The translations under genes and the position numbers were made by a program. Positions 1-6,719 of a stretch of DNA of 21,742 bases are shown one piece after another (the first letter of the stretch is position 1; each line of letters begins with the position of its first letter). Location of the stretch: contig JAEOTZ010000032.1 of NCBI GenBank assembly GCA_016839585.1, positions 1-21,742 on the forward strand. The letters run 5' to 3'. Source of the stretch: Promethearchaeota archaeon. Lineage in GTDB: Archaea > Asgardarchaeota > Lokiarchaeia > Sigyniarchaeales > SOKP01. The notes under the pieces were generated by a model. The model saw only the letters and a program-made list of their open reading frames with translations. It did no database searches and was not told where the DNA came from.

Positions 1-573
<573 letters not shown>

Positions 574-612: not shown

Positions 613-717
613 GTTTTTCTGAGGAAAATATAATTGTTCTTAATAAATTTTCGTACTTTAAAAATCTCTTTTAAAATAGAAGTATATCATTTTAAAAAAT
701 TGTACTTGGAATTTAAA

Positions 718-1719
718 ATGCACCTAAAAGAAAAAATAGGAATCCATTTAGACCAAATTAAACAATTAAAAGGAGTTGAAAATGCAGTATTGACTCAGAG
801 GGATGGTAATCCAATTCAATCTACTGGAGTTTGGTTCTCTAAAGATGAAATTTTTAATGTCAGTTCTGCAACCAGTGCAATTTTTAATGTTGGAATACAT
901 CTACATCCAAATGATTTAAAATATATTTTAATTGAAGGTAAAAAAGCGAAAATTTTAATCGCACCATTAAATAGTCCTTTGCACCATTCTTTAAATAGAA
1001 TTTTAGAACAGCAAGGTATTTTAGATGACAATCATGAATTTTTTATAGCAATTACAGCTCAACCTAACGTTAATTTAGGGGGTATATTTTTACAAACGAG
1101 TGAATGTTTGAAAAAAATTAAGACAACTTTAATAACTTCCGGAGAATCATTCAAACCACCCTTAATTCAGTTTACAAATCAGAAAATTCAAAATATAATC
1201 GAAGGATTCAATGTTAAAGAAAATGAAGAATTTAATTTGAGAGTATCATCATTTTCTTTAAGTTTTTCAGAAAATATATCAATTGAACTAAGAAAAATTT
1301 TAAATAATTTTTCATTAACAATTCCAGATTTAAAATATGCCTTTATTACGATTGAAGGTGGTTTTATTGCTTCTAAAATATTAAAAAAATTTGATGTTAA
1401 TAAAGAAAAGTTAGATAACATTTCAGCAATGAGTTATTCGCTCTTTCAAACAGCTAACAGATGTGCATGGTTATTAAAAAAAATGCAAGCCGAGAATATT
1501 TTGCTTGATTGTGAAAATACTTTTCAGTTTATTAATGGATTAGGAAAAGCAATATTTAGTACTGAAATTGGAAAAGTACGCCAAAAATTGGGGCTTATAA
1601 GGTTAATACTTCCACAATTCTCAAAAAAGATTAATACACTTATTAAGCAAGCATCTGAAATTCAAGATCACAGAACTTTTGATATTAAAAGATTATTGGG
1701 AGAATTAATAATTAAATAA
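718..1719 (+). CDS. Tandem (double) Roadblock/LC7 (MglB/LAMTOR-like) domain protein
   Basis: Two Roadblock patterns: 'LDQIKQLKGVENAVLTQRDGNPIQS..VSSATSAIF..YILIEGKKAKILIAPL..FIAITAQPNVNLGGI' and 'IPDLKYAFITIEGGFIAS..ISAMSYSL..ILLDCEN..KLGLIRL'. ATG at 718 preferred over the TTG at 634. Confidence 0.85.
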   Translation: MHLKEKIGIHLDQIKQLKGVENAVLTQRDGNPIQSTGVWFSKDEIFNVSSATSAIFNVGIHLHPNDLKYILIEGKKAKILIAPLNSPLHHSLNRILEQQGILDDNHEFFIAITAQPNVNLGGIFLQTSECLKKIKTTLITSGESFKPPLIQFTNQKIQNIIEGFNVKENEEFNLRVSSFSLSFSENISIELRKILNNFSLTIPDLKYAFITIEGGFIASKILKKFDVNKEKLDNISAMSYSLFQTANRCAWLLKKMQAENILLDCENTFQFINGLGKAIFSTEIGKVRQKLGLIRLILPQFSKKINTLIKQASEIQDHRTFDIKRLLGELIIK

Positions 1720-1732
1720 TGTAGGTGGAAGC

Positions 1733-2629
1733 ATGAATTTTTTTGAATTTTTAGATAAACTTAAAAAAAATGATAATTCCTTAATTTTATATTGCCTTCT
1801 CGATAGAATTCCAATCATAGTGTTAGGAGAAGATTCAGAGCAAGTTGATCAATTTCTAATCGATTTATCTGAACTTATTCATTTTAGAAAAGAATATGTG
1901 TTTTATACAGACTTTATTTCAAACAATGAATACAATAATTTAGTTTTAAACGAAAATATCGATTTTAATTCTCAAAGAAGTCATATTAGATGTCCTTGCA
2001 ATGTAGCTAGAAAAGCACTAAGTCAAATTGAAGATATTAATTCTTGGCTTATTGGAATGGAACTTCCTGACCAAAAAGATCATTTTAATTATTTAAAAAA
2101 CTTAATTATAAAAAAAGCGATTAAGGTCTTATTTATAATGATCTCAGCTAATAATATTTCAATTGAAGTAGAAGGAATTGATCTCAAATTAATTGATTTA
2201 ACACTAGAACAAAAAATTTTCAGAAAAATTTCTCAAGATACAGAAAAATCTATTGCTAAAATGAAGAGAGTCTTATCCGAAAAAATTCAAGTGAATCATC
2301 TTGATAAAGATCTAATGAAGACTTTATTAGATTTTGAAGTAGAGAAAAACGAATTGAAAAAAAATATTGTTAAAGCTGAAATTCAAAATTTTTATTCAGG
2401 CTCAAAAAGAGCTTTCTTCATATTATCAAGATTATCATTATTAAATAATGTAGAAATTAATACAAATATAGGAAGTAAAACACTTTTAGAAACAATTGAT
2501 TACGAAGAAGCACCTATAAACCGAATAATATCATTTATTGCGAAGGAATGGGAGGCCAATTTTTCTATCTTAATAGAAAATGGTAAAAAAGCATTTATGG
2601 GAGATAAAATAGTTTCACTATGGGGTTGA
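1733..2629 (+). CDS. Conserved hypothetical protein, cDENN-like (SMCR8/folliculin-type) N-terminal region
   Basis: 298-aa ORF with a GGTGG SD-like motif. 'LILYCLLDRIPIIVLGEDSEQVDQFLIDLSELI..SWLIGM' resembles the cDENN core as I recall it from SMCR8/FLCN. Fold assignment is by eye only. Confidence 0.55.
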   Translation: MNFFEFLDKLKKNDNSLILYCLLDRIPIIVLGEDSEQVDQFLIDLSELIHFRKEYVFYTDFISNNEYNNLVLNENIDFNSQRSHIRCPCNVARKALSQIEDINSWLIGMELPDQKDHFNYLKNLIIKKAIKVLFIMISANNISIEVEGIDLKLIDLTLEQKIFRKISQDTEKSIAKMKRVLSEKIQVNHLDKDLMKTLLDFEVEKNELKKNIVKAEIQNFYSGSKRAFFILSRLSLLNNVEINTNIGSKTLLETIDYEEAPINRIISFIAKEWEANFSILIENGKKAFMGDKIVSLWG

Positions 2630-2636
2630 ATCTAAT

Positions 2637-3230
2637 ATGATTTATGATTTTGAAAATAAAACCTTACAGGTTAAAATAGTATATTATGGACCGGCCATGT
2701 CAGGAAAAACAACATCGATTAAACATCTCTTTTCTTATTTTAATAAAGAAGATATGTTAGAGTCTATTGATAATTCTGTAGGGAGGACCTTATTTTTTGA
2801 TTTTGGTGTTTTACAATTCAAGGGGACTGAATGGGGATTGAAATGTTTAATATATTCTGCCACAGGTCAAGATTTTTATGCAAGTACTCGCCCAGCTACT
2901 TTAAATGGAGTAGATGGTATAATATTTGTAGTTGACTCACAATTGGAATATTTAGAACATAATTTATGCTCTTGGAACGAATTAAAAACACTGTTTGGAG
3001 AAGAAATATATAATATCCCTATAGTAATTGCCTTAAATAAATGCGATTTAGATAATATAAAAAAATTAAAGGAACTTGATTTTGTCTCGCATATTAATTA
3101 TGATAGATTCAAAAATCTATCGCTTAAAAAAACAATAGCAATTAAAGGAGAAGGAATAATAGCGTCGTTTTTCCAATTAATTAGATTTATTTTCCCTCAA
3201 CTAAATTTAAAAATCAGTGTTATTAATTGA
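2637..3230 (+). CDS. MglA-family small GTPase
   Basis: KIVYYGPAMSGKTT (G1), GRTLFFDF (G2 with intrinsic Arg), SATGQ (G3), GVDGIIFVVDSQ and NKCD (G4), all MglA signature motifs. Confidence 0.92.
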   Translation: MIYDFENKTLQVKIVYYGPAMSGKTTSIKHLFSYFNKEDMLESIDNSVGRTLFFDFGVLQFKGTEWGLKCLIYSATGQDFYASTRPATLNGVDGIIFVVDSQLEYLEHNLCSWNELKTLFGEEIYNIPIVIALNKCDLDNIKKLKELDFVSHINYDRFKNLSLKKTIAIKGEGIIASFFQLIRFIFPQLNLKISVIN

Positions 3231-3233
3231 TTT

Positions 3234-3431
3234 TTAGTCTTTTTTTTTTTTATTCTTTTGATACATATTTTTAGATATTCTTTTTATGTATCCTTGCATA
3301 TAAAATTGTTTTAATAAATTTCTTACTTTACGTACTTGCGAGGCATCAATTCCCAAAACACTCATTAATTGAAATATTGAAAATTGTATTGGTAAATTAT
3401 CCTTAATATTATTATATAATCCCATTTCCAT
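3234..3431 (-). CDS. Small winged-helix (wHTH) protein
   Basis: 65 aa. 'FSIFQLMSVLGI..VRNLLKQFYMQGYIKRISKNMY' follows an HTH-plus-wing pattern. Confidence 0.6.
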   Translation of the reverse strand: MEMGLYNNIKDNLPIQFSIFQLMSVLGIDASQVRKVRNLLKQFYMQGYIKRISKNMYQKNKKKKD

Positions 3432-3491
3432 TTTATTGTAGTCTTTTTTCAGTTATTATATAAAAATGAATAAATATTTTTATAAATTGTT

Positions 3492-3603
3492 ATTCGATTA
3501 AGGTTTGTATAATCCTCAAAGTAACTATAACTTATCATTCCTACTTATTGTAGATCATCCTTGTCTAGTTTCTATCATCGAATTTTTATAACCTTAATCC
3601 AAT
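3492..3603 (-). ncRNA. Dual-guide box C/D sRNA within a BHB-containing precursor stem
   Basis: Minus strand: outer stem, BHB, box C AUGAUAG (3578-3572), guide, D' AUGA (3558-3555), UCUAC/GUAGG hairpin, C' AUGAUAA (3538-3532), guide, D UUGA (3519-3516). Both K-turn geometries are intact. Guides are complementary to LSU H69 (AGUAACUAUAACU) and to a CCUUGUC segment like the one downstream of H69. Confidence 0.8.
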
Positions 3604-3620
3604 TTTTCTAATTTTTTAAA

Positions 3621-3636
3621 TTTTTAAATTTTTTTC
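3621..3636 (-). promoter_or_regulatory. Putative promoter (BRE + TTTAAAAA) for the C/D RNA precursor
   Basis: Minus strand GAAAAAAA-TTTAAAAA ends ~20-25 nt upstream of the 5' stem arm. The same TTTAAAAA box precedes the tRNA. Confidence 0.45.
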
Positions 3637-3699
3637 AAAAAAGAGTAAAAAAAACCTTATAAAATAATTATCGGTAATTTTCAATCTAGTAAAATCAAT

Positions 3700-4386
3700 T
3701 TAAATATCTTGAAAATCCTTAAAATTATTGCCTATTGGAGCCTCTCCATCTCCATATATTTGATATAATCCTGTTCTTCTAGCACATTCTGAAAAACTAC
3801 GATATATATTTTTCCTTTGGTCATATAATGCACATGATTTATAAATGATGGGATTCCAAATATATAGCTCATGATCAGGTTCATACCAGAGTTTTTCATC
3901 TTTCATTACTTGCTTAAAATCTTCTTCTCCAATCACTTCTTTAAGATCTTGCTTATTTAACATGATTATAAGAGGAATTTCTTTAATTAACTTTCCTCTT
4001 GTTACATTTTTTAGCTCTTTCAATGATTCTATATTATCTTCGAAAAAGTGGGTTTGTGAATCAACAGTAAATATAACTCCATCAGTACCTTTAAATATTT
4101 TTTTTCTTAATGGGGAAAATCTTCTTTGACCTGCCACAGTATACACGTGATAAAATACTTTTCCTCTGCTTTTCTGTTTTGTAGATTGAAAAATCCCTCT
4201 ATCAAAATAAAGTGTGGATCCACTTGCCATAGAAATTTTAGTTAAATGACCCGTTGGTTCAATATCTTTTTCATCTTCTTTTGTTAATCTATAAAGCGTA
4301 TCTACAATTGTTGTCTTTCCTGAGCCAGCCATTCCCCAATAGAGTATCTTTATATATACTTTATGATCTGCTGTAAATCGAACCAT
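3700..4386 (-). CDS. MglA-like small GTPase (second paralogue)
   Basis: KILYWGMAGSGKTT, GSTLYFDRG, VYTVAGQ, FKGTDGVIFTVDSQ, NKQD and SCA motifs. AGGAG SD upstream. Confidence 0.92.
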   Translation of the reverse strand: MVRFTADHKVYIKILYWGMAGSGKTTIVDTLYRLTKEDEKDIEPTGHLTKISMASGSTLYFDRGIFQSTKQKSRGKVFYHVYTVAGQRRFSPLRKKIFKGTDGVIFTVDSQTHFFEDNIESLKELKNVTRGKLIKEIPLIIMLNKQDLKEVIGEEDFKQVMKDEKLWYEPDHELYIWNPIIYKSCALYDQRKNIYRSFSECARRTGLYQIYGDGEAPIGNNFKDFQDI

Positions 4387-6450: not shown

Positions 6451-6476
6451 TATGAATAAAAATATAATAATTTTAT

Positions 6477-6588
6477 GCTTCTGTAGTGTAGTCCGGTCAA
6501 TCTTATCTTTCTTTTTGAAAAAGTGGATTAGGACCAGGCATATGAGGCTCTCATCCTCACGACCCGGGTTCGAATCCCGGCAGAAGCA
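6477..6588 (+). tRNA. tRNA-Glu(CUC) with a 37-nt non-canonical intron at position 21/22 (6501-6537); CCA not encoded
   Basis: Acceptor GCTTCTG/CAGAAGC plus discriminator A. Anticodon arm TGAGG-CT[CTC]AT-CCTCA. T arm CCGGG-TTCGAAT-CCCGG. Removing 6501-6537 restores the D arm GTGT-AGTCCGGTCAA-GCAT. Intron junction has a central helix GGTC/GACC. Confidence 0.93.
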
Positions 6589-6719
6589 ATTTAAATATTT
6601 AGTATTAAAGTATCCTCTATTCTAATTTAATGTAAGTAGCGAATCACAGAAATAGATCAATAATCATTGAGATTTAAAGTGGTTTTCATTACAGGTAAAT
6701 CGAAAAATAATATTAGAGA

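Follow-up and report, generated by a model that had tools for sequence, protein, structure and literature searches.

The window, meaning the whole stretch of DNA analysed in the current work (21,742 nt), carries on its minus strand, between positions 3599 and 3496, a 9-bp outer stem followed by a 4-bp helix between two 3-nt bulges (a bulge-helix-bulge, or BHB, arrangement) and by a 4-bp inner stem which closes a box C/D RNA. The features of this locus, in the 5' to 3' order of the minus strand, and those of the neighbouring genes are as follows:

3613..3628, minus: pair of TATA-like boxes which overlap (TTTAAAAA), lying 21 and 29 nt before G3599; judged from sequence, a candidate archaeal promoter for the guide RNA gene
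3591..3599, minus: 5' strand of the outer stem (GAUUAAGGU), the '5' exon' arm, perfectly paired with 3504-3496
3587..3590, minus: 5' strand of the central 4-bp helix (UAUA)
3584..3586, minus: 5' bulge (AAA), predicted EndA cut between 3585 and 3584
3580..3583, minus: 5' strand of the inner helix (AUUC), paired with GGAU at 3515-3512; in the terminal C/D kink-turn, this is the canonical stem
3572..3578, minus: box C, variant AUGAUAG, placed by alignment
3559..3571, minus: D' guide (AAACUAGACAAGG), 13-nt spacer
3555..3558, minus: box D' (AUGA), invariant in 28 of 28 congeners, with the hairpin stem directly after it
3540..3554, minus: hairpin UCUAC-AAUAA-GUAGG, which separates D' from C' and acts as the canonical stem in the internal kink-turn
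3532..3538, minus: box C' (AUGAUAA)
3520..3531, minus: D guide (GUUAUAGUUACU), 12-nt spacer
3516..3519, minus: box D, variant UUGA
3512..3515, minus: 3' strand of the inner helix (GGAU)
3508..3511, minus: 3' strand of the central 4-bp helix (UAUA)
3505..3507, minus: 3' bulge (CAA), predicted EndA cut between 3506 and 3505
3496..3504, minus: 3' strand of the outer stem (ACCUUAAUC), the '3' exon' arm
3506..3584, minus: predicted excised RNA of 79 nt, possibly circular, as derived from the BHB geometry
3462..3466, minus: T5 run about 30 nt past the stem, possible archaeal terminator by its sequence
634-1719, plus: Roadblock/LC7 protein
2637-3230, plus: Arf/Ras-like GTPase
3700-4386, minus: second Arf-like GTPase

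All coordinates given in the original prediction proved to be correct, including those of the two BHB strands, GGU-UAUA-[AAA]-AUUC (3593-3580) and GGAU-UAUA-[CAA]-ACC (3515-3502), and of the 9-bp outer stem (3599-3591 with 3504-3496). The candidate TATA box that had been noted corresponds to the TATA-like boxes listed above, and similar boxes, being TTTATAAT- or TAAATAAT-like, are located approximately 23-28 nt upstream of the outer stem in orthologues. Past the T5 run, the next feature is a conserved TATA-like box which probably serves the downstream 65-aa ORF. A scan for sigma-70 promoters and intrinsic terminators was discounted, such signals being inapplicable to archaea.

The RNA gene is surrounded by a cluster of eukaryote-like signalling genes (634-4386 of the window), a setting in keeping with an Asgard origin. 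ARAGORN found no tRNA in the window and Rfam found neither tRNA nor rRNA in the flanks of the element, which agrees with the previous statement that these flanks are not tRNA or rRNA halves and sets the locus apart from tRNA and rRNA introns. The only Rfam match in the window is the 5' end of a 16S rRNA gene at 1-368 (minus); this gene is located about 3.1 kb from the guide RNA gene, which is upstream, with opposite-strand genes between the two. In many congeners the guide gene is located 3.2-3.8 kb from a contig end, which suggests that synteny with the rRNA gene is conserved and that contigs break there.

Box C/D boxes, guides and predicted 23S rRNA targets

A complete C-D'-C'-D RNA had been described inside the BHB, and such an RNA was indeed retrieved, its boxes being variants rather than textbook sequences. 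The box register was fixed by an alignment of 28 congeners, in which the nucleotide preceding AUGA is variable (G, A or U), so that box C reads AUGAUAG. The terminal kink-turn consists of the stem AUUC/GGAU, the loop G3579-A3578-U3577, the sheared G-A/A-G pairs, which involve G3576/A3575, a U-U pair, and an A-U pair replacing the usual G-C. This last pair is formed by position 6 (A) of box C and position 1 (U) of box D, where textbook boxes have G-C, and it covaries (A-U in 41 sequences, G-C or C-G in 3), so that the variant boxes are compensated; in lineages with box C AUGAUGA, box D is CUGA. The internal unit is composed of D' (AUGA) and C' (AUGAUAA), with spacers of 13 and 12 nt and a covarying hairpin in which each of the five pairs has changed on both sides and the paired share of cells is 94%. 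No curated Rfam C/D family matched the RNA at gathering or E-value thresholds, the best being sR58 with 12.1 bits versus a cut-off of 55; since archaeal guide families are lineage-specific, this missing match is no argument against membership of the C/D class. Fibrillarin is encoded in the genome (260.7 bits). The identity of the RNA as a dual-guide box C/D RNA is settled in silico.

The 23S rRNA of the assembly itself stops at model position 1319, and the target sequences were therefore taken from relatives, namely the congeners G001, G030 and G064, 23S rRNA being absent from five congeners checked. In a first search, a helix 69 pattern with a bacterial-type flank gave no match. The D guide pairs at 12 of 12 positions with the loop of 23S helix 69 (AGUAACUAUAAC, found in all three congeners and also in four genomes from the order and class), and its core UUAUAGUUAC is kept across the class. 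The D' guide forms 11 bp, one of them G-U, with helix 71 (CCUUGUCUGGU) of the three congeners. By the fifth-nucleotide rule, the predicted site of the D guide is the second A of GUAAC and that of the D' guide the G of CCUUG, 32 nt apart, so that each guide combines rRNA complementarity with a fifth nucleotide opposite a plausible methylation site.

In yeast, psi2258 and psi2260 are the counterparts of E. coli positions 1915 and 1917, and Am2256 precedes psi2258 by two nucleotides (PMC2794176); the D-guide site is therefore that of A1913 in E. coli and of Am2256 in yeast (snR63). Yeast Gm2288 (snR75) is located 32 nt beyond Am2256 (PMC5199042); the D'-guide site is the equivalent of this nucleotide and of E. 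coli G1945, the spacing being the same as in yeast. Helices 68, 69 and 71 are known hotspots of archaeal methylation (PMC4644070). Based on the guide pairing, methylation is predicted at both 23S sites, and since both match yeast methylated positions at a functional centre of the ribosome, they may predate eukaryotes as guide-directed sites. In yeast, Am2256 (helix 69) and Gm2288 are served by two separate snoRNAs, snR63 and snR75 (PMC2794176, PMC5199042), as opposed to the single archaeal dual guide described here, and common ancestry of these RNAs is not implied.

In one subclade (L013, L018, L022, L019 and L027) the D' guide has three mismatches to an unchanged helix 71 target, the D guide is perfect and the outer stem is also weaker; G030 likewise has three D' guide mismatches with the target unchanged. 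One of the two guide functions, that of D', thus seems to be decaying in this subclade.

Genome-wide scans were performed in order to place the locus among other candidates. A dual-unit scan returned 222 candidates versus 44 in the control; when such dual guides were compared to rRNA, the window locus ranked first and was the sole one with both guides matching (11 and 12 bp). A half-unit scan at a minimum of 11 bp returned 51 versus 21 in the control. A scan for a BHB combined with a kink-turn gave 17 matches under strict settings versus 6 in reversed sequence, and 31 versus 11 in the control under looser settings, with rRNA-complementary guides being retrieved at the window locus only. Most matches of the BHB and dual-guide scans fall in coding sequence, and the strict, loose and half-unit scans retrieved no other convincing BHB-framed or dual-guide C/D RNA in this genome, with the limit that divergent guides would escape them. 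A chance origin of the BHB-framed guide is unlikely. The combined BHB and kink-turn scan also retrieved two near-identical A/U-rich copies of 114 nt (G000 C5:92657-92770, minus, and C12:37927-38040, plus), in which no rRNA-complementary guides were found.

The bulge-helix-bulge frame and its conservation

A 116-nt stretch encompassing the element folds with -24 kcal/mol, which is better than 200 of 200 shuffled sequences (z = -3.9); in the minimum-free-energy fold, the outer and inner stems are formed and the four A-U pairs of the central UAUA/UAUA helix are open. In the window copy, both bulges can slide within A-runs, which generates four arrangements with 17 bp in total each (two 3-4-3, one 3-3-3 and one 3-5-3), and the hBHBh' motif with two 3-nt bulges on opposite strands, a 4-bp helix and flanking helices is present as one of these four registers. 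In an alternative register the 5' cut is placed 1 nt downstream, with a product of 77 nt (3583-3507). The description of the motif as a 'perfect' or textbook BHB is therefore too strong with regard to its uniqueness, the bulges not being held in a single register, while the geometry itself is present, conserved and covarying.

By means of BLAST, 27 congeners matched the element, the similarity beginning and ending at the outer stem. A covariance model based on the congener sequences, the use of which had been suggested as a check of BHB conservation, retrieved full-length matches in 94 of the 151 genomes of the order, i.e. in 92 of 131 genomes of the home family (11 of 13 sampled genera there, 12 genera order-wide) and in 1 of 14 genomes of a second family; a search with the D-guide pattern retrieved further orthologues in other families. 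In an alignment of 49 sequences, double-sided changes are seen at 18 of 19 pairs, and 93% of cells are paired, a proportion which drops to 81% with shuffled sequences and to 25-48% once the pairing partners are slid; as the alignment was fitted to the covariance model, these values are biased somewhat towards the structure. The central helix is 100% paired in 28 congeners, with one variable pair (G-U in 21, A-U in 4 and G-C in 3), and 97.9% paired in the 49 sequences, where all four pairs have changed on both sides somewhere; 95% of the cells of the inner helix are paired, with compatible changes. The third nucleotide of the bulge varies freely among congeners. The outer stem covaries across orthologues, being rebuilt with different sequences, and in most species it continues through an internal loop into a GGAGUU/AACUCC extension. 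In one congener (L095, G063:C77:38504-38811) the element occurs twice, side by side, with scores of 69 and 53 bits; the central helix of the stronger copy is UCUA/UAGA, and the other copy apparently lacks the 5' part.

To evaluate the geometry in relatives, a strict arrangement was defined as an inner helix of at least 3 bp adjacent to the kink-turn, a bulge, a helix, a second bulge and an outer helix of at least 3 bp. Under this definition a 3-4-3 arrangement is possible in 37 of 56 orthologues, while A/U-rich members also allow 3-3-3, 3-5-3 or a second 3-4-3 register at the same pair count. In G042, which belongs to another family, the BHB reads AAC-CUUG-[AAA]-GGGAC / GUCCC-CAAG-[UAA]-GUU (outer strands UCCACAAUAAC on the 5' side and GUUAUUGUGGA on the 3' side), and 3-4-3 is the sole solution. 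In G057, from a third family, it reads GUC-CCCU-[AAU]-CUC / GAG-GGGG-[AAA]-GAC (outer strands CAAAAGUC and GACUUUUG, respectively), and within the home family UCUA/UAGA and CUAG/UUAG central helices also occur. Three lineages therefore have the same geometry and A-rich bulges with no helix sequence in common, which is hard to explain unless the shape is selected, and the comparison indicates that the BHB geometry of the frame of this guide is under selection.

The motif is not present in every orthologue. In genus g19, textbook AUGAUGA/CUGA boxes are enclosed by a plain stem that bears a 1-nt bulge. The stem of G055 (g8) is plain and 9 bp long, and that of G053 (g12) has a 2x1 internal loop; in addition, some members of g22 and g23 have a 2-nt 3' bulge under maximal pairing, and a few members have a mismatch in the central helix. 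Most members of the home family retain the 3-4-3 geometry, and the BHB is lost in g19, g8 and g12; because orthologues without it occur in at least three genera, the BHB is dispensable for the guide.

These plain-stem orthologues, which retain the guide, can be taken to suggest that the flanking stem is a structural clamp which would join boxes C and D and block exonucleases, with the ends being generated by trimming and no EndA being involved; the BHB-like shape would then be a tolerated by-product of an A/U-rich stem. The sliding of the bulges, with helix lengths of 3 to 6 bp being equally possible in many sequences, fits such a clamp, as does the literature model in which archaeal C/D sRNAs are matured by protein protection and trimming (PMC7994747). 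A clamp, however, could do without a 3-nt bulge in either strand, placed on the 3' side of a short helix, yet this arrangement is kept with compensatory changes. A clamp also leaves unexplained why the geometry recurs in three lineages whose sequences are unrelated, including one where 3-4-3 is the only register, and why other bulge sizes are rare (2-4-2 in 2 of 56 and 4-4-4 in 1 of 56 orthologues). We therefore consider the clamp unlikely, though deserving of some weight, and excision by EndA the best explanation of the conserved frame.

Proposed maturation and comparison with known systems

The genome encodes two tRNA_int_endo (EndA) paralogues, each in an ORF of 208 aa (domains at G000 C2:77426-77650 and G000 C39:1832-2080), and one RtcB. 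Two EndA paralogues are indicative of the heteromeric type of endonuclease, which is tolerant of relaxed motifs, and their presence here suggests a heteromeric enzyme of broad specificity. As a control from the same genome, the tRNA-Leu(CAA) gene was used, which has a canonical BHB with A-rich bulges, GCCGGA-CUCA-[AGA]-UC / GA-UGAG-[AAA]-UCCGGU; a clean BHB was available from this tRNA only, the intron calls of ARAGORN being too imprecise to serve as controls. A cut after the second bulge nucleotide reproduces the canonical 37/38 intron site in tRNA-Leu(CAA), and the same rule at the sRNA locus predicts the 79-nt product 3584-3506, or the 77-nt product in the alternative register.

In the proposed mechanism, a small dedicated transcription unit would generate a precursor whose ends are paired in a long stem, with the BHB placed directly outside the terminal stem of the dual-guide C/D RNA. 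The archaeal splicing endonuclease would then cut both bulges and release an RNA of 77-79 nt, which RtcB would probably circularise, the two short arms being by-products. Next, the guide RNA would assemble with L7Ae, Nop5 and fibrillarin, and the resulting RNP would direct 2'-O-methylation at two 23S rRNA positions, the A in the loop of helix 69 (A1913/Am2256) and the G in helix 71 (G1945/Gm2288). The predicted junction of the circle joins 3506 to 3584, i.e. ...GGAUUAUACA to AAUUCGAUGA..., or 3507 to 3583 in the alternative register. Taken as a whole, this reading, with a dedicated gene, release by EndA at the BHB, a circle made by RtcB and a guide for 23S methylation, is held by us to be fairly probable. 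The previous designation of the locus as a 'host transcript' is overstated, its 'exons' being only the two arms of the processing stem; no exon sequence is present beyond these arms.

With regard to RNA data, the locus is present in nineteen DNA-type runs (marine sediments and cold seeps) and in one RNA run. The latter contains a single 205-nt contig of a relative (depth 2.4) which covers 3501-3598, ends at 3598 and extends 107 nt past the 3' arm without a junction; it may represent precursor RNA or DNA carry-over.

If EndA cuts the BHB, the functional guide might nevertheless be linear, either because no ligation takes place or because a short-lived circle is reopened as in archaeal pre-rRNAs. 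Circular pre-16S and pre-23S intermediates are, according to work cited in PMC9014305, later linearised, and in other archaea linear C/D RNAs are found alongside circular ones (PMC7994747). On the other hand, RtcB normally ligates both products of EndA, and the excised RNA would be expected to close with a 4-bp stem and a 7-nt loop in which no obvious reopening site is seen. A linear functional guide is thus deemed improbable, and circularisation by RtcB likely.

A further route to a circle is known from Thermococcus kodakarensis, where C/D circles depend on the ATP-dependent ligase Rnl, knockout of which represses their formation, and where circles of rRNA and of the tRNA-Trp intron result from BHB cleavage and RtcB (PMC9014305). 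The present genome has one RNA_ligase-domain match, and owing to this gene it is conceivable that a circle, if formed, is made by an Rnl-type ligase after trimming and independently of the BHB, as in Thermococcales. The match, however, is weak (31.9 bits) and located in a 590-aa ORF of unknown type, and the Rnl route leaves the conserved BHB geometry unexplained, so that we consider it very improbable at this locus.

Excision by EndA followed by circularisation has precedents in archaea. The euryarchaeal pre-tRNA-Trp intron (Haloferax, Pyrococcus; Clouet d'Orval 2001, as cited in PMC7994747) has, like the present locus, a dual-guide C/D RNA between the BHB bulges, which EndA and RtcB release and circularise in the manner proposed here. 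Unlike that intron, the locus contains no tRNA, its 'exons' are stem arms only and its targets are in 23S rRNA rather than in the host RNA. Archaeal 16S and 23S processing stems and the permuted SRP RNA of Thermoproteus, which is matured via a leader-trailer BHB (PMC4731332), also have a leader/trailer stem with a BHB; there the wanted product is the excised and circularised middle, the flanks being discarded, which is the logic proposed here. They differ from the locus in their cargo, which is here a guide of about 79 nt from its own small gene; since this gene is not permuted, circularisation is not needed to restore its order, unlike in the permuted SRP RNA. Two congeners were also searched strictly for a BHB in their 16S processing stem, over 250 nt on each side, with no convincing result.

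Stand-alone guides, as here, are also found as circular C/D sRNAs in Pyrococcus, Thermococcus, Sulfolobus and Nanoarchaeum (Starostina 2004; Danan 2012; PMC3491384; PMC9014305). Unlike the locus described here, the ends of C/D sRNAs are usually without a canonical BHB (PMC7994747), and the junctions of the Rnl-dependent Thermococcus circles vary by a few nucleotides. A literature search for Asgard C/D sRNAs retrieved nothing specific. BHB elements near many C/D sRNAs are reportedly described by Berkemer et al. 2015 (Genomics Comput Biol 1:e18).

The original prediction had also proposed an Asgard parallel of eukaryotic intron-encoded snoRNAs. In such snoRNAs with non-coding hosts, the excised part is the useful one and no function is known for the joined flanks, which is a similar logic; their release, however, involves spliceosomal introns, debranching and exonuclease trimming, with enzymes and signals unrelated to those of the locus. 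To our knowledge, archaea lack a spliceosome. The parallel was therefore overstated: the likeness to eukaryotic snoRNA host genes is one of analogy only, and archaeal rRNA processing stems, the tRNA-Trp intron and the permuted SRP RNA are the closer parallels. The locus thus extends known BHB-dependent maturation and is not a new kind of system, and the claim is modest in that BHB-based release of non-tRNA RNAs was already known and the motif is dispensable in sister genera.

The ends and the circularity of archaeal C/D guides are only partly understood, the sole genetically defined route being that of the Thermococcus Rnl ligase. The locus offers a clean Asgard test case with a conserved and covarying BHB, a stand-alone cargo, both candidate enzymes encoded in the genome and exactly predictable junctions. 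We see an even balance for the wider proposition that in this Asgard family EndA and RtcB constitute the regular maturation route of a free-standing C/D guide, as an 'intron without exons' with a circular product. If true, this would provide a defined mechanism of C/D RNA circularisation outside the Rnl route and would widen the substrate set of EndA in the closest archaeal relatives of eukaryotes.

Two further observations concern other RNA genes. In the congener G064, the 16S and 23S genes are about 50 kb apart on the same contig, which indicates that its rRNA genes are unlinked, and its 23S gene (L118, G064:C35:93000-100000) has an insertion of approximately 770 nt (~1584-2358) near reference position 2720, absent from G030, which may be an rRNA intron. 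Within the window, a tRNA-like gene at 6476-6589 (plus) was overlooked by ARAGORN under default settings, and a different tRNA was called there when introns were allowed; a tRNA match to Rfam at 6522-6580 (24.9 bits) covers model positions 9-63 only, and the anticodon loop CUCUCAU contains the anticodon CUC (Glu). This gene probably encodes a tRNA interrupted, towards its 5' part, by a non-canonical intron.
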